The notes beneath the pieces were generated by a model, which saw nothing but the letters and a program-made list of their open reading frames with translations, ran no database searches and was not told the DNA's origin. A stretch of DNA of 64,000 nt from Candidatus Poribacteria bacterium (GTDB lineage Bacteria; Poribacteria; WGA-4E; WGA-3G): the NCBI GenBank assembly GCA_965242965.1, contig OZ251518.1:1920001-1984000 (forward strand). The letters are read 5' to 3'. Shown here in pieces: positions 2,445 to 37,630 of this stretch; the stretch's first letter is position 1, and every line of letters begins with the position of its first letter. A program made the position numbers and the translations under genes.

Positions 2445-4256
2445 CTACGGGGAAGGGGGACCGTTTTTCTTATGTGTAGCACACAAATCACACGTCTTGC
2501 ATCGATAATCTTCTTCGACTTCTTCACCAAAATATTCACGGATGACGCGCGTCCGGCACGTCGTCGCCAGCGCGTAAAATACCACCTTATCAATCTGCTG
2601 GCGTTTGCGGCGGACATAATCCCCTACTTCGATTTGCTCCTCAGTCAACGTGTCAAAGAGTTCGCTGTCATGGATTAACTCAAGCAGCATCAGATCTTCT
2701 TGTCCCCGATACTGAATATAGCCATCGCTCTGCAACTCGGCGAGGTGCTCCATCACAGCCTTCGGATCCAACGCTGTCGCGTTGCATAAATCCAAAATCT
2801 TTGGCTTTGTCCTCCGTTGGAATTGGCTGAGTAGCTGCCGCATCGTATCTGACAACGGCGCGCTTTGCGTAGAGTGCACAGAGCGGCCGAAACGCACCGA
2901 GAGCTGCGATGGCACATTATACCACCGCTTCAGAAAGCCGAGTTTTTCGAGATAACTGAGGCAGACTTGGATTTTCCCACTTTTCAACCCGCTCATCCAC
3001 TCCAATTCATCGCTGGCGATGGTTCGGTAATCTCCCGCGGACTCAAAAGTCTCAATCACTTTGAGGAGTTTCAGCAGAGAGGGTTTATCCGGTGCGTTTT
3101 CCTTGATAAACCATTCGTGCAGTCCTCTGTCTTCAGGACAATAGAGCAAGACGCACTGCGAGTCTTCGCCGTCCCTGCCGGCTCTCCCGACTTCTTGGCA
3201 ATATTCTTCCAGCGTGCCTGTCATCGTCCAATGCACGATGTATCGGATATCCGCCTTGTCAATGCCCATGCCGAAGGCGTTCGTCGCGACGACGATGTCC
3301 AGTCCGTTGCTGCTGTCGTCAAAAAACGCTTCTTGGACGCGCGTGCGCTGGTGCGGTTCAAGCCCGGCGTGATAATGCGCGGCACGAAACCCGCGCGTTT
3401 TCAGGTAATCGGCGATGTCCTCGGTGTTGCTGCGGGTGCCGGCGTAGATAATGCCGTTGTTGCCCGCGGCATGTTCATAGACGAATTCGGTGAGCCGCTG
3501 ATACTTTTCATCTTCATCGCCGCTTTCTTGCACGCTCAGTTTCAGATTCGGACGTTCAATTCCTTGCGTCATCACTTTGGGAGTCGGGATATGGAGCAGA
3601 TTCGTCACGTCTTCTCGAATCTCCGGTGGTGCCGTCGCGGTGAAGAGCGCGATGACATGCGGTTGGAGAGCGTCTAGCGCATCGCAGATTGACAAGTAAG
3701 CGGGCCGAAAATCGCGTCCCCATTGCGAAATACAGTGCGCCTCGTCAATCACAAATAAGGAGATAACGCAGGTGTTCAGCATATCGAGAAAACGTCGGCT
3801 CCGCAGGCGTTCAGGGGAAATATAGAGGAGTTTGACTTCGCCTCGCTGAATCCGTGTCAACTCAGTGCGGTATTCATCAAGCGTCTGCGTGCTGTTGATG
3901 GCAGAGACTGCGGTGATTCCGTGCGCCTTCAATGCGTCAACCTGGTCCTTCATCAATGAGATGAGCGGCGAAATGACCACGGTGATGCCTGTAAGCATCA
4001 GTGCCGGCAGTTGATAACATAACGATTTACCGTGTCCCGTTGGGAAGACAGCGAACACATTTTTGCGTGCCAAAATCGCTTCTATAATCTCGCGTTGCCC
4101 AGCGCGGAATTGGGTATAGCCGAAGTGTGTGTTGAGCGAGGCGAGGAGTTCGTCTGGCGCGGGCGCGTTATTGGGGGGCTCTTCTACGGGGACTACCTTA
4201 TCTTTTGTGATTAGAATGGAGTCAACTTCTGCTAGTAGTGCTTGCAAATTGCTCAT
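2445..4256 (-). CDS. recQ: RecQ-family ATP-dependent DNA helicase
   Basis: PTGHGKSLCYQLP, DEAHCISQWG, VATNAFGMGIDK, QEVGRAGRDG, and a C-terminal zinc motif C..CxxCDLC. Start placed at ATG 4256 because the longer ORF extends into repeats. Confidence 0.88.
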   Translation of the reverse strand: MSNLQALLAEVDSILITKDKVVPVEEPPNNAPAPDELLASLNTHFGYTQFRAGQREIIEAILARKNVFAVFPTGHGKSLCYQLPALMLTGITVVISPLISLMKDQVDALKAHGITAVSAINSTQTLDEYRTELTRIQRGEVKLLYISPERLRSRRFLDMLNTCVISLFVIDEAHCISQWGRDFRPAYLSICDALDALQPHVIALFTATAPPEIREDVTNLLHIPTPKVMTQGIERPNLKLSVQESGDEDEKYQRLTEFVYEHAAGNNGIIYAGTRSNTEDIADYLKTRGFRAAHYHAGLEPHQRTRVQEAFFDDSSNGLDIVVATNAFGMGIDKADIRYIVHWTMTGTLEEYCQEVGRAGRDGEDSQCVLLYCPEDRGLHEWFIKENAPDKPSLLKLLKVIETFESAGDYRTIASDELEWMSGLKSGKIQVCLSYLEKLGFLKRWYNVPSQLSVRFGRSVHSTQSAPLSDTMRQLLSQFQRRTKPKILDLCNATALDPKAVMEHLAELQSDGYIQYRGQEDLMLLELIHDSELFDTLTEEQIEVGDYVRRKRQQIDKVVFYALATTCRTRVIREYFGEEVEEDYRCKTCDLCATHKKNGPPSP

Positions 4257-4274
4257 GGTGTTTTTCAGTTCCTC

Positions 4275-5015
4275 TCCGTAGGGCGAGATCGCGGGGGACA
4301 GGCCCCCGCGCCACGGTAAAAAAAACGCCCCTTTATCGTAGGGCGAGGGCCCTCGGATGCCACACGCGCATGCGAGCGGGTTTCCCTCGCCGTGCCTGGG
4401 ATACACGAACGATCGCGGCGTTGAAAAAAAACGCCCCCCCCTTCATCGTAGGGCGAGGGCCTGTCCCTCGCCGGGCCATCGGCCACGCGTGCGCGCATCC
4501 CCTCTGTAGGACAAGAGCACCTGCTCTTGACCCGTTCGGGAGCAGGCACTCCCGAACTACAGTTTCCTCAAGGTCTGTAAGACCTTAATGTCTATAGTAC
4601 CCGCAGCCCGTCAAGTCCTCAAGGTCCTTTAGGACCTTAATGTTTTCCGGATGCGTTGCGTGTGCTGCCTATTAAGGACCTAAAGGACCTTAGTGTTTTT
4701 CACGTCCGGCGGATACTATAGACATGCAGGACCTAAAGGACCTGAAGAGATTTTTTCGCGGGTGCGATCACGGGGGACAGGCCCCCGCGCTACGGTAGAA
4801 AACGCCCCTTCATCGTAGGGCGAGGGCCTGTCCCTCGCCATGCTCCGGTCCACCGAACGATCGTGGGAAAAAAAACGCCCCCTCATCGTAGGGCGAGGGC
4901 CTGTCCCTCGCCATGCCTGGGATACACGAAACGATCGCGGGGGACAGGCCCCCGCGCCACGGGCCTAGGTGGCGTGTTCCTCAGATCGCGGGGGACAGGC
5001 CCCCGCGCTACGGGC
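4275..5015. repeat. Mosaic REP-like array (GTAG-GGCGAGGG-CCTGT-CCCTCGCC family and variants) containing a ~175-bp four-hairpin element (4570-4744)
   Basis: Multiple copies in both orientations. Confidence 0.9.
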
Positions 5016-29440: not shown

Positions 29441-29683
29441 TTATCGTCTCCAAAGGTTTATTAGCAGGCTTCCGATGCCGACGATGATGCTGATGCCGAT
29501 GGCGATGTTGGCGCGTAACGTCGCTGTCCATTCGGCGCGCCCCTCGAGTTTGCCTCGGATCCAACTTACGTCTTGCTCAAGCGAACCGAGTCGTTTGTCA
29601 ACGCGTTCTTCATACGCGTGCTGTCGTTCTTCCATGCGTTCCATCCATTTGAGGACGTGCTGTTGGAATTCTTGATTGTCCAT
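29441..29683 (-). CDS. 80-aa coiled-coil + C-terminal TM protein, copy B
   Basis: Protein identical to 29709..29951. GGAGG SD. Confidence 0.8.
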   Translation of the reverse strand: MDNQEFQQHVLKWMERMEERQHAYEERVDKRLGSLEQDVSWIRGKLEGRAEWTATLRANIAIGISIIVGIGSLLINLWRR

Positions 29684-29708: not shown

Positions 29709-29951
29709 TTATCGTCTCCAGAGGTTTATTAACAAACTGCCGATGCCGACGATGATGCTGATGCCGATGGCGATGTTGGCGCGTAACGTCGCTGTCCATT
29801 CGGCGCGCCCCTCTAGTTTGCCTCGGATCCAACTCACGTCTTGCTCAAGCGAACCGAGCCGTTTGTCGACGCGTTCTTCATACGCGTGCTGTCGTTCTTC
29901 CATGCGTTCCATCCATTTGAGGACGTGCTGCTGGAATTCTTGATTGTCCAT
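29709..29951 (-). CDS. 80-aa coiled-coil + C-terminal TM protein, copy A
   Basis: MDNQEFQQHVLKW...IAIGISIIVGIGSLLINLWRR. GGAGG SD. Differs from copy B only by synonymous changes. Confidence 0.8.
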   Translation of the reverse strand: MDNQEFQQHVLKWMERMEERQHAYEERVDKRLGSLEQDVSWIRGKLEGRAEWTATLRANIAIGISIIVGIGSLLINLWRR

Positions 29952-30034
29952 GATGATGCCTCCGGTGTTTATTTTTTTCAACAAAATAGATTATACGATA
30001 TTTTAAGTGAAAATGCAAGTCTTTTTTGTGTTCC

Positions 30035-30405
30035 CGGTAGGAGAGACCTCCTGGTCTCGATGCAATACCGTATCGGGACAAGGATGTCCCTCCTACCCAA
30101 ACACGTAGGCGAGACCTCCTGGTCTCGATGTTCCCGTAGCGCGGGGGCCTGTCCTCCGCGATTGTTGGCTTGCGCGAGCACTAGCAAGGGACAGGCGTTT
30201 TTTCATCGTAGCGCGGGGGCCTGTCCCCCGCGATCGTTGGGGTACGCGGACGATGGCGAGGGACAGGCCCTCGCCCTACGGTGAAGGGATGCCGTTTCGG
30301 ATACCGTAGCGCGGGGGCCTGTCCCCCGCGATTGTTGGCTTGCGCGAGCGATGGCGAGGGCCCCTCGCATGCGCGTGTGGCATGCGAGGGCCCTCGCCCT
30401 ACGGT
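30035..30405. repeat. GTAG palindrome array
   Basis: Families A, B, C and E. Confidence 0.85.
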
Positions 30406-30462
30406 GAGGGGAAGGCGTTTTTTTCCTAGCGCGCAGCAAGCACGTTAATTTTTCTGCTGGTT

Positions 30463-32094
30463 TCACTTCATCTCCGCCTCAATATCAGCCAAAGTTTGGC
30501 GGAAAGCCTCATTTTGCGGTGACATCTGAATCGCCGCGCGGATTGCCTTCAGTGCCTTTTGATGTTCACCGGTGTGAGAATACGCCAATGCCAACGTCTG
30601 TAAATATTGCGGTGCCGGTGCCAAACGAAACGCTTCTTGCGCAAAGGCGATGGCATCTTGGAGTTGGAGCCGCTGCTGGATATAGAGCCGCGCCAATCCG
30701 TTGAGCGCGTAATGCGCCTTTGCATCCAGCGTTAACGCCGCCCGATATGCCGCGATGGCTTTGTCAACTTCGCCTCGGCGATGGTGGATAGCGGCGATAC
30801 CCGCCTGCGCTGTCGCTAAGGACGCATCGTGTGTGAGTGCGCGCTGATATGCCGCGAATGCCTCATTTAACCGGGCTTGCGCATAGTAGACTGCACCTAA
30901 ACCGGCGTGCGGTGCCGCCTGCGCTGGTGCCAAGGCGATTGCCTCCAGATAGGCATCCGCCGCCTTCTGAAAATTGCGTTTGCGGAAGAACAACTTTCCG
31001 AGTTTGTAGAACGCGGCGGCGCGGTAATCTCTCCCATCGCGCGTCGAAAGTCGGCATGCTTGCTGATACGCCGCAATTGCCTTATCAAATTTCCCATATT
31101 TTTCGTAGGTTATCCCCAGTTGATACTGCTTTTGCGGGTTGCTCGGTTCACTGAGGGTTGCGCGCTCACGCGTGTCAATCTCTTGGGCGATGGCATTGAG
31201 GCGATGATAGGTTTCCATCGCGCGTTTTCCCGCCTCTATCTGCTTCAATCGGAAGAGTGCCTGAGCGAGATTGTAGTAGGCACCGACATGCTCCGCCTGC
31301 TGCTTGATGACGGTGCGGTATTCCTCGGCGGCGCGCTGAAATTCGCGTTGCTTCGTGAAGACCAAACCGAGGCGATAGCGGGCGGCAGTGAAATTGGGAT
31401 TGAGATGGAGTGCCGCCTCCAACAGCGGACGCGCCTTGTCAAGTTCACCCTGTTCCAGATAGATGGCACCTAAATTGCCGTTCGCCATCGGGAGTTCCGG
31501 TTGTTCGGCTAACGCCTCTTGATAATAGCGAATTGCTTTCGCCGGTTGATTGACAGCCTCGTAACAGGAAGCGAGGTTCGTCAGTGCCGCCGCTAACTTC
31601 GGTGAACGGCGGAGACACTCGTGATACGCCGCGAGTGCCTCCGGAAATCGGGCTGCCTGCTGATACGCAGACGCGAGCCCAAGCCGCAGCTGCAGGGCAT
31701 CGGGATGCTGTCGGGTGAGCCGCTGATAGATGTCGATTGCCGCCGCGACCCGTTCGGTTTTTGTATAGAGGTGCGCGAGATTCGCCGCCGCTTGCAAGTG
31801 CTGGCTTTCTATTGCCAGTGCGCGTTTGAGTGCCGCCTCTGCCGCATCAAACTCGCCGAGTTGTAAGTGAACCGTGCCGAGTGCGGCATGCGCTTTAGCG
31901 AAGTCAGCGTCTTGCGCTGTAGCCTGCTGAAGATGGTGAAGGGCTTGTGCGTATTCTCCGCGACGTGCAGCTTCCTTTCCGCGCGCGTAGAAATCTTCTG
32001 GTGATTGCGCAACTGCGGTCCCCAAAACGAGCCAGAGAAAAATGGCGATTTTTGTCTTCCGCAATGCTTGCGATAACAGTTTTTGTGCTATCAT
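30463..32094 (-). CDS. Secreted multi-TPR protein
   Basis: Signal-like N-terminus and more than 10 TPR-like units (e.g. AHAALGTVHLQLGEFDAAEAALKRALAI). Confidence 0.9.
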   Translation of the reverse strand: MIAQKLLSQALRKTKIAIFLWLVLGTAVAQSPEDFYARGKEAARRGEYAQALHHLQQATAQDADFAKAHAALGTVHLQLGEFDAAEAALKRALAIESQHLQAAANLAHLYTKTERVAAAIDIYQRLTRQHPDALQLRLGLASAYQQAARFPEALAAYHECLRRSPKLAAALTNLASCYEAVNQPAKAIRYYQEALAEQPELPMANGNLGAIYLEQGELDKARPLLEAALHLNPNFTAARYRLGLVFTKQREFQRAAEEYRTVIKQQAEHVGAYYNLAQALFRLKQIEAGKRAMETYHRLNAIAQEIDTRERATLSEPSNPQKQYQLGITYEKYGKFDKAIAAYQQACRLSTRDGRDYRAAAFYKLGKLFFRKRNFQKAADAYLEAIALAPAQAAPHAGLGAVYYAQARLNEAFAAYQRALTHDASLATAQAGIAAIHHRRGEVDKAIAAYRAALTLDAKAHYALNGLARLYIQQRLQLQDAIAFAQEAFRLAPAPQYLQTLALAYSHTGEHQKALKAIRAAIQMSPQNEAFRQTLADIEAEMK

Positions 32095-32317
32095 CGTTTT
32101 TCTCCGTATTTTTCGCGGGGGTCGTTCAGATTACCGTAGCGCGGGGGCCTGTCCTCCGCGAGTTTTCGGTAGACCGCAGCATAGCGAGGGAAACCCGCTC
32201 GCAGGCGCGTGTGGCATGCGAGGGCCCAAGCCCTACGGTGAGGGGGCCGTTCTGTTGGAAAGAAAATGTCCGGTTACCGTAGCGCGGGGGCCTGTCCCCC
32301 GCGCTCTCGCCCGCGGC

Positions 32318-33295
32318 CTACGCGCCGTTTTGTGCCCGCGCGATATCACGATAGCGTCGCACTTCCACATCATCCGGCATGCGTCGCAGCGTTTCCTTGT
32401 AATCCTGCAGCGCGGCTTCATACCGTTGCATCGCGAAGTTTGCATGCGCACGGCCGAGGTATGCATCGACATCTTCCGAGTTTCGCGCGAGGGCTGCATC
32501 GTAATCGCGGACAGCGGCGGTGTAGTGCTGCAGGTGAAAGTGTGTCACGGCGCGATTGAAATAGCCTTCACTACGTTCGGGTTTCAGACGGATAGCCGCG
32601 TCATAGTCGCGCAGCGCGGCGGTGTAGTCGCCGAGGGCATAGTAGAGGCTGCCCCGGTTGCAGTGCGCCGCGGCATAATCAGGTTTGAGGCGGATGGCGA
32701 CATCGTAAGCGGCGATGGCGTTTTCCGATTTGCCGATTTCCGCGAGGAGGGTGCCGAGGGAGAAAAAAGCATCGATGGCATTTTCTTCTTCGGTGGGGAC
32801 ATGGATATCCTTATTTTTTTCATCCAACCGTGCGATGGCTGCTTCTATCTCGGGGTCCTCCTCATGTTCCAATTCCAGGAGTTCTGGAAACAACTCTTCC
32901 ATAGTTGGAAAATGGGCTTTCCCATAAATCCTCACGAAGTCTCCGACGCATGCATCTACGTCTGCTAAGGGACTGTCGAGATTGCCACCATCAGCCCACA
33001 TTAACTCCTCTGCCATGACAGAGAGTTGTTTGTATTCGTCCGCGGTGGCGGTGGGACGGCGCAGATTATCGGTGCGATTGGCGAGTTCGGTTAATAACTC
33101 TTGGATGCCGACGAGCCACGCGACGTAACTTTCCGAGGGTGCTTCCTCTTCAGCGGCATGCTTCTCTTCCGGTAAGCCCTCGCGTTCAAGCGGTGCTTGC
33201 CGCGGGATGAACGGCTCTGGCAGACTCATGCGAAGCGAGACAGCGAGTGCCGGCACGGGTAAGCCAGTGGGCATCGTTTGTGTAGGCGTTAACAT
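32318..33295 (-). CDS. Putative antitoxin: HigA-like N-terminal segment fused to TPR repeats (copy 2)
   Basis: Directly downstream of a higB-like gene. EYKQLSVMAEELM..SPLAD..YGKAHFP segment followed by about 4 TPRs. No HTH evident. Confidence 0.75.
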   Translation of the reverse strand: MLTPTQTMPTGLPVPALAVSLRMSLPEPFIPRQAPLEREGLPEEKHAAEEEAPSESYVAWLVGIQELLTELANRTDNLRRPTATADEYKQLSVMAEELMWADGGNLDSPLADVDACVGDFVRIYGKAHFPTMEELFPELLELEHEEDPEIEAAIARLDEKNKDIHVPTEEENAIDAFFSLGTLLAEIGKSENAIAAYDVAIRLKPDYAAAHCNRGSLYYALGDYTAALRDYDAAIRLKPERSEGYFNRAVTHFHLQHYTAAVRDYDAALARNSEDVDAYLGRAHANFAMQRYEAALQDYKETLRRMPDDVEVRRYRDIARAQNGA

Positions 33296-33301
33296 TGGGT
33301 T

Positions 33302-33639
33302 TTACCTCCTCTTTAACCACGCGTTATACTCGGCGTGCGTTAACACACGATCGCCACCTGCTGTCTGTCATAGTTTATCTTGGCAATCAGGCGGGTTTTG
33401 TTACCGCCAATGTTGAAGCCAGTGTAGTTGACTTCTTCCTTAAGGTGGCGTTTCTGTTGTGAAGAATAAACGAAATCTTCTCTTTTCACCAGATCGGCGT
33501 GCGGAAACACCTCCCGCACCTCGTTAAGCGACTGGAAATCTCTTTGCCGCACCAAATCACGCCAGCGGTGAAGTCCCGGCTTGCTGTTTGGATGTCTTTG
33601 TGCAAAGTCGTTGAGTTTTTCTTCAAAATGAATCTGCAT
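33302..33639 (-). pseudogene. higB: HigB-family toxin, copy 2, truncated by a 4-nt deletion
   Basis: Paralog of 34849..35190. ATCGATTATGTGTTA has become ATCGTGTGTTA, giving an early stop at 33340 and leaving LTHAEY out of frame (338 vs 342 nt). Confidence 0.8.
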
Positions 33640-33855
33640 TGGAAAACCAATTCTATTCAAAACGGTGCGATCGGATTACCGAGGCATGGCGAGGGACAAG
33701 CCCGCGCCCTACGTGCAGCGAAGTCACCGTAGCGCGGGGGCCTGTCCCCCGCGAGTTTTCGATAGACCGCAGCATGGCGAGGGCCTGTCCTCGCCCTACG
33801 GTGAAAGGGCGTTTCTCCTACCGTAGCGCGGGGGCCTGTCCCCCGCGGTCTCGCC

Positions 33856-34842
33856 CTACGCGCGGTTTTCTGCCTGCGCGATATCCCGATACCGTTGCAC
33901 TTCCACATCATCCGGCGAGCGTTGCAGCGTCTCCTCGTAATCCTGCAGCGCGGCTTTATACCGTTGCATCGCGAAGTTGGCATGCGCGCGGCCGAGGTAA
34001 GCATCAACATCATCCGGATTCCGTGCGAGGGCTGCATCGTAATCTCGGACAGCGGCGGTATAGTGCTGCAGGTGAAAGTGCGTCACGGCGCGATTGAAAT
34101 AGCCTTCACTACGTTCAGGTTTCAGGCGGATAGCCGCGTCATAATCATGAAGCGCGGCGGTGTAGTCGCCGAGGGCATAGTAGAGGCTGCCTCGGTTGCA
34201 GTGCGCCGCGGCGTAATCGGGTTTCAGGCGGATGGCGACATCGTAAGCGGCGATGGCGTTCTCGGCTTTTCCGATGTCCGTGAGGAGGGTGCCGAGTGAG
34301 AAAAAGGCATCGATGGCAATTTCTTCTTCCGTGGGGACATGGATGTCCTTATTTTTTTCATCCAACCGTGCGATGGCTGCTTCTATCTCGGGGTCTTCCT
34401 CATGTTCCAGTTCTAGGAGTTCGGGGAACAACTCTTCCAGAGTTGGAAACGTTGCTGCCTCATAAATCCGCATGAAGTCGGCGACACATACCTCTATGTC
34501 CGCTAAGGGACTGTCGAAATTGTCACCAGCCGCCCACATTAACTCCTCTAACATGCCAGAGAGTTGCTTGTATTCGTCCGCTGTGGCTGTGGAACGGCGC
34601 AGATCATCGGTGCGATTGGCGAGTTCGGTTAATAACTCTTGGATGCCGACGAGCCACGCGACGTAACTTTCCGCAGGTGCTATCTCTTCATCTGCGTGTT
34701 TCTCTTCCGGTAAGTCCTCGCTTTCAAGCGGTGTCTGCGGTGCTTGTCGCGGGATGAGCGGCTCCGGCAGGCTCATGCGGATGGACACAGGGAGCACCGG
34801 CACGGGTAAGCCAGTGGGCATCGCTTGTGTAGGCGTTAACAT
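33856..34842 (-). CDS. Putative antitoxin: HigA-like N-terminal segment fused to TPR repeats (copy 1)
   Basis: 6 nt downstream of higB, with its SD overlapping the toxin stop. EYKQLSGMLEELM..DSPLADIEVCVADFMRIYEAATFP followed by TPRs. Confidence 0.75.
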   Translation of the reverse strand: MLTPTQAMPTGLPVPVLPVSIRMSLPEPLIPRQAPQTPLESEDLPEEKHADEEIAPAESYVAWLVGIQELLTELANRTDDLRRSTATADEYKQLSGMLEELMWAAGDNFDSPLADIEVCVADFMRIYEAATFPTLEELFPELLELEHEEDPEIEAAIARLDEKNKDIHVPTEEEIAIDAFFSLGTLLTDIGKAENAIAAYDVAIRLKPDYAAAHCNRGSLYYALGDYTAALHDYDAAIRLKPERSEGYFNRAVTHFHLQHYTAAVRDYDAALARNPDDVDAYLGRAHANFAMQRYKAALQDYEETLQRSPDDVEVQRYRDIAQAENRA

Positions 34843-34848
34843 TGGGTT

Positions 34849-35190
34849 TTACCTCCTCTTTAACCACGCGGTATACTCGGCGTGCGTTAACACATAATCG
34901 ATCTCCACCCGCTGACTGGCATAGTGTATCCTGGCAATCAAGCGGGTTTTGTTACCGCCGATGTTGAAGACAGTGTAGCTGACTTCTTCCTTAACACCGC
35001 GGTTCTGTTCTTTAGGATAAACGAATCTTTCTCTTTTCACCAAATCGGCGTGCGGAAACATCGCACGCACCTCGTTAAGTGACCGGAAATTTTTTTGCCG
35101 CACCAAATCACGCCAGCGGTGAAGTGCCGGCTTGCTGTTTGGGTGTCTTTGTGCAAAATTGTTGAGTTTTTGTAGAGATGTAATCTGCAT
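34849..35190 (-). CDS. higB: HigB-family (RelE-like, HigB_toxin) mRNA interferase
   Basis: F.QRHP...L.RW, FPHADLV, TVFNIGGNK.RLIARIHY, VLTHAEY. Confidence 0.9.
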   Translation of the reverse strand: MQITSLQKLNNFAQRHPNSKPALHRWRDLVRQKNFRSLNEVRAMFPHADLVKRERFVYPKEQNRGVKEEVSYTVFNIGGNKTRLIARIHYASQRVEIDYVLTHAEYTAWLKRR

Positions 35191-37264: not shown

Positions 37265-37630
37265 ATCAAGCATCGAGACCGGGCGGTCTCAATTTTCCCG
37301 TAGCGCGGGGGCCCTCGGATGCCACACGCGCATCCGAGCGGGTTTCCCCCGCGAGCGTTGGAGAACCGTTATTTTTATCGTAGCGCGGGGGCCTGTCCCC
37401 CGCGATCTCCATCGTCAAGAGATGGCGTTTTAGGTCCTTTAGGACCTGAAGAGAACAAGAGACGTTTTTTTCGGAGATCGAACGATGGCGAGGGACAGGC
37501 CCTCGCCCTACGGTGAAGGAGAGGCGGCCTCGACACCCGTAGCGCGGGGGCCTGGCCCCCGCGATCGTTGGAGTGCGCGGACAATGACGAGGGACAGGTT
37601 TTCCTATTGCATCGCAACCCGAGGTCTCTC

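Follow-up and report, generated by a model that had tools for sequence, protein, structure and literature searches.

HigB-family toxin genes coupled to HigA-like proteins with tetratricopeptide repeats in a Candidatus Poribacteria genome

Type II antitoxins are usually described as combining a toxin-binding part with a DNA-binding part. What kind of system, then, is formed by a HigB-like toxin gene whose partner carries tetratricopeptide repeats (TPRs) where the helix-turn-helix (HTH) domain of the antitoxin would be expected? The question is raised by 64,000 nucleotides (nt) of contig OZ251518.1 from a Candidatus Poribacteria genome (assembly GCA_965242965.1, positions 1,920,001 to 1,984,000), a stretch referred to throughout as the window, in which two such gene pairs lie in tandem. 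These units are probably a version, peculiar to one lineage, of the type II toxin-antitoxin (TA) system higBA as known from E. coli, with an antitoxin that has a TPR array instead of a DNA-binding domain.

All coordinates are positions within the window, and the toxin and partner genes all lie on the minus strand. The features of the two units, with protein lengths in amino acids (aa), are as follows:

34849–35190, minus strand: HigB-family toxin copy 2, upstream unit; 113 aa from ATG (MQITSL), stop included; intact
34852–34857, minus strand: AGGAGG ribosome-binding site of partner 2, within the two final codons of the toxin and 9 nt ahead of the ATG; read from the sequence
33856–34842, minus strand: partner 2; 328 aa, with disordered tail, three-helix module, acidic linker and four TPRs
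34405–34680, minus strand: three-helix module, partner 2 residues 55–146; from the AlphaFold2 (AF2) model and hhalign
34444–34584, minus strand: helices 2–3 of partner 2, residues 87–133; HigA-like, putative toxin-binding part
34318–34443, minus strand: acidic linker, partner 2 residues 134–175; nearly invariant among paralogues
33859–34317, minus strand: TPR array, partner 2 residues 176–328, four repeats; TPR_1 99.3 bits
33661–33855, no strand: palindromic repeats resembling repetitive extragenic palindromes (REP-like) between the units; repeat families D1, D5 and D6; deep metagenome coverage
33340–33639, minus strand: HigB-family toxin copy 1, downstream unit; 4-base deletion beside 33347/33348, stop at 33340–33342
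32318–33295, minus strand: partner 1; 325 aa, intact, with the architecture of partner 2 and 87% identical to it
33305–33310, minus strand: AGGAGG of partner 1; a sequence reading

The arrangement originally described here, i.e., two tandem copies of a HigB-like gene followed by a gene for 325 or 328 aa, was borne out. The DNA of the two units was 86–91% identical at a spacing of 1538–1551 nt. In both units, the final two toxin codons read AGGAGG, directly against the TAA, close to where the original prediction had placed the ribosome-binding site of the partner (overlapping the stop), and the partner ATG lies 6 nt past the stop. Each unit is then followed by REP-like repeats of one family, which after partner 1 occupy 32132–32312.

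The first gene of each unit is a member of the HigB family. Pfam HigB_toxin (PF09907, cut-off 27 bits) matched copy 2 with 84.1 bits and copy 1 with 59.0 bits, and the only clear relatives of solved structure were the HigB proteins of E. coli and Shigella (5ifg, 5ycl and 6kml; E about 1e-7). The alignment to HigB in the PDB ran from end to end, save for 15 extra residues after FPHADLV in the window toxin. Seven residues (F75, N76, G79, R83, H103, E105 and Y106) were invariant across 25 relatives and E. coli HigB (26 sequences), and copy 2 retains them all. The ratio of nonsynonymous to synonymous substitution (dN/dS) among intact toxin paralogues in the genome was 0.34–0.44, by which measure they are under purifying selection. 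By homology, the toxin is predicted to be a ribosome-dependent mRNA endonuclease. The sequence GNKTRL, which had been thought atypical in place of GNKYRL, was ruled out as an oddity since the site is variable, and relatives have Y, A, V, T or E there.

The partners contain four TPR_1 stretches at residues 175–315 (99.3 bits in partner 2, 93.7 bits in partner 1). TPR families were the only ones found, with no HTH family in either partner, while E. coli HigA, as a control in the same scan, returned HTH_3 with 31.8 bits; Pfam and NCBIfam gave no match in residues 1–170. An acidic linker and four TPRs do stand where the HTH was expected, as had been claimed, and the motif quoted in support of a likeness to HigA (DSPLAD..V.DFMRIYE..FP) is present at residues 90–133 of partner 2. 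The model of the full-length partner was mediocre, with a mean predicted local distance difference test (pLDDT) of 60.5; residues 1–53 were disordered and three helices followed. The module alone was modelled by AF2 from an alignment of 44 sequences with a pLDDT of 87.7, and its helices fell at module positions 4–22, 34–51 and 58–77.

The relationship of this module to HigA emerged through intermediate proteins. A search with PF09907 of 81 genomes of the order found matches in 52; by family, with the window's own genome left out here and below, these were 27 of 33 genomes in family f1, 4 of 11 in f2, 20 of 29 in f3 and 0 of 7 in f4. The best 30 of these loci comprised HigB genes without the enlarged loop, and behind such genes there were four kinds of protein: of 132–135 aa, of 75 aa, of 102–120 aa, and of 125 aa, this last type matching HTH_3. 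At locus L064, the protein of 132 aa gave a full-length match to E. coli HigA (5ifg_B, E = 5.9e-14). A profile of 44 module sequences recognized the 132–135-aa HigA proteins with 31–41 bits (E = 4e-12 to 6e-9; 769 open reading frames (ORFs)), the 75-aa proteins with 70–74 bits and the 102–120-aa proteins with 61–63 bits. The alignment always placed module positions 33–79 against HigA residues 23–72, and a comparison by hhalign of the 44 modules with 12 HTH-bearing HigA proteins plus E. coli HigA returned a probability of 97.3% (E = 2.4e-11) over the same module positions. As described in PMC7984235, two helices of E. coli HigA wrap around HigB, and its HTH is C-terminal. Through these intermediates, the partner module proves homologous to the N-terminal helices of HigA, and partner helices 2–3 would correspond to those that wrap the toxin. 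The HigA-like character that had been proposed for the N-terminal segment was thereby upheld, but by this indirect route and not through a direct match to E. coli HigA.

Searches that did not pass through the intermediates were less informative. Partner residues 1–170 had no match among PDB sequences at E up to 10, and what the 44-sequence profile returned from the PDB was limited to chance matches and an artefact of repeats (8pjs). A narrow profile of 4 sequences retrieved 38 proteins, with an HTH in 0 of the 10 short ones scanned, and HigA was out of its reach. A separate observation concerned HigB genes of the 'RIISRR' type in several genomes (L053, L055–L057, L060 and L061), behind which ORFs of 44–54 aa, after a gap of 113–143 nt, replace the expected 125-aa HigA frame; this suggests decayed or differently framed antitoxin genes.

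The pairing of HigB with a module-TPR protein is not confined to the window; the architecture has expanded within Candidatus Poribacteria, a phylum of sponge symbionts in which it is conserved and abundant. The genome (5.70 Mb, 2 contigs) has four toxin-partner pairs and one orphan partner; the two pairs beyond the window are intact with the same junction, and 6 nt separate toxin stop and partner ATG in 4 of 4 pairs. The N-terminal 170 residues of the partner found matches in 22 of 41 related genomes, with 21 of 24 genomes in family f1 and, for the order's three other families, 0 of 16. One related-locus search with the N-terminus of the window partner gave nothing; the module of one relative retrieved 78 loci, where full-length matches (≥70% identity) were all from Poribacteria, except for two records titled 'uncultured bacterium'. 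Matches in other phyla reached helices 2–3 only; they fell in HTH-less ORFs of 44–98 aa, most of which follow a 95-aa HigB after 3 nt. A wider protein search returned at least 543 longer proteins with E ≤0.001 (8000 candidates scored), and TPR families were present in more than 100 of the best 120 of these. The five that had a source name were annotated 'tetratricopeptide repeat protein' of Candidatus Poribacteria; because annotation says only this, too few TA systems are counted in these genomes.

The two sets of loci together held 98 distinct module genes, of which 58 had a HigB ORF within 60 nt upstream and 40 did not; these counts are approximate, since each ORF was taken to begin at its first start codon and contig ends cut some loci short. 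The gap between HigB and module was 3 nt in 33 of the 58 pairs; a further 12 pairs had 6 nt, and 5 had 12 nt. The succession of HigB and TPR genes, which had been proposed as a thing to look for across genomes, is conserved in one bacterial family. Past the module, all 20 of the longer partners scanned (292–845 aa) had TPR families only, in numbers from approximately 1 to 19 repeats. Four further partners were scanned, of which three were TPR-only and one, the 227-aa partner of L029, matched no family. At L029, there is also a stand-alone module-like ORF of 96 aa (4100–4390, minus strand), 157 nt upstream of the 227-aa module protein, making two HigA-like modules in a row with no toxin. Partners of 360–372 aa (L012–L016, L025 and L030) have only one or two recognized TPRs and approximately 150 C-terminal residues without a confident family; precomputed matches list PF13588 for some of their relatives.

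The kind of partner was reflected in the toxin itself. The insertion after FPHADLV noted in the original prediction proved to be a real enlargement, of 15–18 residues in copy 2, of the loop between FPHAD and FNIGGNK. Loop length was the distance between the F residues of the F-P and F-N-I motifs, four toxins that did not fit the pattern being dropped and seven with a downstream ORF shorter than 60 aa being set aside. The loop was 15–31 residues long (median 25) in 54 distinct toxins with a TPR-fused partner, 12–13 in 15 toxins with an HTH-bearing HigA and, among 22 toxins whose partner is short, 12 in 21; the exception (30) was L010, where the contig ends within the partner. In a quick maximum-likelihood tree, built from 84 toxins over 108 columns and rooted at the midpoint, a branch with a Shimodaira-Hasegawa-like approximate likelihood ratio (SH-aLRT) support of 89 had the 51 TPR-partnered toxins all to one side. 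These were nested in a group with short-partnered toxins (SH-aLRT 95), apart from the HTH-partnered toxins, and their nearest neighbours belonged to the 75-aa and 120-aa partner types of Poribacteria. This fits a single origin from a pair of HigB and an HTH-less antitoxin.

A comparison of the four paired partners of the genome showed that the two ends of the protein evolve differently. Helices 2–3 had an amino-acid identity of 46–77% and a dN/dS of 0.38–0.63, while the acidic linker and TPR array together had 90–98% and 0.03–0.26 (linker alone, 93–98% and 0.03–0.26; TPR array, dN/dS 0.12–0.22). Since synonymous divergence across linker and TPRs was 0.13–0.45, this conservation reflects selection and not merely recent copying. 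In comparisons that involve L001, synonymous divergence was greater in the toxin and helices 2–3 than in the TPR part, which points to a partly mosaic history. Fast helices beside a fixed TPR array would fit the insulation of paralogous pairs from one another, and the pattern suggests a common, conserved ligand of the TPRs, if there is one, and not an arms-race sensor.

Set against E. coli K-12 HigB-HigA (YgjN-YgjM; 5ifg, 6kml), the units share the toxin-first order, the Pfam family of the toxin and its invariant residues, and the partner has helices homologous, via the intermediates, to HigA residues about 26–66. Where HigA has a C-terminal Xre HTH, the partner has its acidic linker and TPRs; it also adds an N-terminal helix and a disordered tail of 55 residues, and the toxin loop is longer than that of E. 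coli HigB by 15–18 residues. The partner gene is translationally coupled to the toxin gene, and in the proposed mechanism the three-helix module of the partner would bind and silence the toxin. Having no HTH, such an antitoxin would presumably be unable to repress its own operon. The TPR array may be a protein-binding platform that ties the availability or stability of the antitoxin to another protein, and a phage, sponge-host or bacterial protein bound there could free or restrain the toxin. A complex prediction for toxin and module (score 0.17, mark 0.32) weighs neither for nor against binding.

That the HTH is dispensable is indicated by the HTH-less relatives of the module, 75 aa long, that stand behind a 95-aa HigB in several phyla, i.e., Latescibacterota, Chloroflexota, Thermodesulfobacteriota and cyanobacteria as well as Poribacteria. 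These are the closest relatives of the module (61–75 bits with the module profile, 47–59% identity over approximately 50 residues). They end directly after the Y-E-D-x-H-V-P-E-L helix and have no TPRs, their toxins are short-looped, and neither Pfam nor NCBIfam holds a model for them.

Several observations weigh against interpreting the units as a modified higBA system with a regulatory TPR array. Compared with E. coli HigA alone, the module gave no significant result by BLASTP or by hhalign, the region aligned in the latter case being already the expected one. A fold comparison with HigA, which accompanied the original prediction as a suggested check, failed to support it: the best hit of the module model against the PDB by Foldseek had E = 2.1, and VIA-align against 48,161 chains gave generic three-helix bundles (Z ≤7.8) with no HigA among the best 50. 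These searches do not show that the folds differ. The association of loop and partner may be one inherited event, because all pairs of the TPR type form one lineage. The TPR part is the most conserved region of the partners in this genome and the helices are the least, which is a misfit with an arms-race sensor. The neighbours of the units encode a DctM transporter and FG-GAP and TPR proteins and do not form a defence island. Two further points, the orphan module-TPR genes (40 of 98, including the fifth copy in this genome) and the inverted roles of a related defence system, are taken up below with the explanations they bear on.

The first of these explanations is a TA module in which the TPRs sense nothing; they would replace the dimerisation, solubility or protease protection otherwise given by the HTH, or would clamp the toxin loop. 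This is possible, if unlikely. HigBA complexes dimerise only through HigA in the account available from PMC7984235, and a structural duty would sit well with the strong conservation of TPRs and linker among paralogues (dN/dS 0.03–0.26), with the restriction of the enlarged loop to toxins with TPR partners, and with a pairing that persists though the repeat number runs from approximately 1 to 19. However, if the 75-aa relatives neutralise their toxins, they do so with neither HTH nor TPRs, which means that no extra domain is required, and the toxin loop is very different between paralogues whose TPRs are almost identical, which argues against a specific fit of loop to TPRs.

A bolder form of the preferred reading would make each partner a single-chain antitoxin and sensor, whose TPRs capture a phage or sponge-host protein and so release or destabilise the module and free HigB; this was regarded as rather doubtful. 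If it were true, the proteins would be a family of ligand-triggered growth-arrest switches, in which array length and toxin-binding helices diversify independently. The enlarged toxin loop would then be part of the latch, and orphan module-TPR proteins would be decoys or anti-addiction antitoxins. A TPR array joined to an output module is familiar from the RRNPP peptide receptors and the TPR arms of STAND and Avs proteins; these, however, couple TPRs to an HTH or to an NTPase-effector and not to a toxin-binding antitoxin module. Family scans of the partners gave no sequence relationship to TPR sensors beyond generic TPR matches.

It is more difficult to maintain that the module-TPR proteins are 'eukaryote-like' repeat proteins with a job of their own, with HigB genes as decaying passengers and the pairs as relics, and this seems improbable. 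The state of toxin copy 1 speaks for such a view. This copy lacks 4 bases relative to copy 2 and stops 16 residues early, ahead of the conserved T-H-A-E-Y (the H-x-E-Y motif); its dN/dS against copy 2 was 1.00, as under neutral evolution, while the partner of the broken copy is still constrained. The original claim of a duplicated toxin module therefore stands insofar as both copies pass PF09907, but it had overlooked the truncation. In metagenome run X1, which may be the source sample, the deletion allele was unchanged. In run X5, one contig (depth 24.1 of 55.8) had four extra letters exactly at the deletion site, which would keep the frame of copy 1 open; since the contigs are short and the region has paralogues, no more than a hint of a recent, polymorphic loss can be read from this. 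On the preferred reading, too, the downstream unit has probably lost its toxin of late and retains the partner alone.

Toxin fragments were seen at several loci, and no toxin precedes 40 of the 98 module-TPR genes, including conserved classes of 320 and 353–355 aa in many genomes. Therefore, the partner also exists, and may work, without a toxin. Against the notion of passengers, the intact toxins retain all residues shared with E. coli HigB at a dN/dS of 0.34–0.44, the coupling is tight (3–12 nt) in 50 of 58 pairs, and the orphans too retain the toxin-binding helices.

Individual orphans differ in their surroundings. The fifth module-TPR gene of this genome (L022:3069–4043; G000:C1, ~1.695 Mb) encodes 324 aa, with an N-terminal part 41% identical, and has no HigB in front; the gene upstream specifies a 577-aa protein. 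A class of 313–355 aa, with its module at residues 42–132, occurs in many Poribacteria genomes and never has HigB upstream (L097, L099, L100, L101, L105, L107, L108, L110–L112, L114–L119, L121 and L125); these may be domesticated or 'orphan' antitoxins. At L033 and L046, a very large repetitive protein is encoded upstream of the module-TPR gene.

Known systems that extend an antitoxin offer both a precedent and a warning. In the available text on PD-lambda-2 (Vassallo et al. 2022; PMC9519451), a HigB-like protein is encoded with a HigA-like Xre-peptidase fusion and a third gene needed for defence, and the fusion is itself toxic and rescued by the HigB-like component. The likeness to the window lies in a HigB-like first gene followed by a long protein with a HigA-like start and a different C-terminal domain. 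Toxin copy 2 matched PADLOC PD-Lambda-2_A (PDLC03979) with 70.7 bits (E = 3.1e-20); neither partner matched PD-Lambda-2_B, the start of which was weakly matched by a 75-aa relative (E = 1.2e-3). As described there, PD-lambda-2B consists of an Xre HTH and an ImmA/IrrE peptidase, neither of which is found in the window partners, and the system's third member is a relative of a P4 antitoxin, whereas neither unit has a third gene within it or directly behind it. PD-lambda-2 is a precedent for a HigB-like protein and an extended HigA fusion acting in phage defence. Its inverted roles are the second of the points deferred above, yet it is hardly credible that they apply here, with a harmful HigA-like fusion restrained by the HigB-like protein, given that the window partner has TPRs only and no enzymatic domain, that orphan partners are common where a toxic partner would be lethal, and that the units have no third gene.

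In toxin-antitoxin-chaperone (TAC) systems, the fate of the antitoxin is tied to a separate protein-binding component (10.1101/2024.02.24.581848, PMC9519451, as far as available). There, a SecB-like chaperone encoded separately beside HigBA acts on a C-terminal extension, while the partners in the window carry their TPR array in cis and have no chaperone gene next to them; no SecB-like ORF was found at 29–39 kb, nor any such protein by Pfam among six flanking proteins.

Around the units, a GC-rich palindromic REP-like family with the core CGTAGCGCGGGGGCCTGTCCCCCGCG fills the space between genes, 9 copies lying within 9 kb (30132–30410, 32132–32312, 33680–33856 and 37274–37618). In contigs of the sponge metagenome, bins with these elements had approximately 100x the depth of flanking genes, from which it follows that the element is very high-copy. 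The elements that flank both units may have mediated their duplication. A promoter scan, whose models do not extend to those of this phylum, gave no convincing site in the minus-strand sequence upstream of toxin copy 2.

Directly downstream of the units, at 30463–32094 (minus strand), is a gene for a TPR protein of 543 aa, which has a hydrophobic segment in its N-terminal part; among its many TPR matches is one to the RNPP family C-terminal domain (30.2 bits). Further on, at 29441–29683 and 29709–29984 (minus strand), a small gene for an 80-aa protein is present as a tandem duplicate (262 nt, 96% identical). The protein has an N-terminal coiled part and a hydrophobic C-terminal helix, and belongs to no Pfam family.

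The architecture had been proposed as undescribed, and the literature searched agrees with this. Titles and the starts of abstracts on HigB or TPR antitoxins, TA systems of Poribacteria and HTH-less antitoxins gave no account of HigB with a TPR-fused antitoxin, although the supplements of PMC10440598 and PMC9519451 might list such pairs; the main text of the NetFlax paper (PMC10440598) does not mention TPR. On the interpretation preferred here, an uncultured lineage of sponge symbionts would have exchanged the DNA-binding part of an antitoxin for a protein-binding repeat array, and then multiplied the result, to at least 543 protein clusters and as many as five copies in the genome of the window. 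The series from HTH-bearing HigA through the 75-aa module and the 102–120-aa module with N-terminal extension to the module-TPR protein is a natural set of constructs, with which one can ask what an antitoxin needs besides its toxin-binding helices. It would also provide a testable case in which the release of a toxin is coupled in cis to the recognition of a protein, beside the trans solutions represented by TAC and PD-lambda-2.

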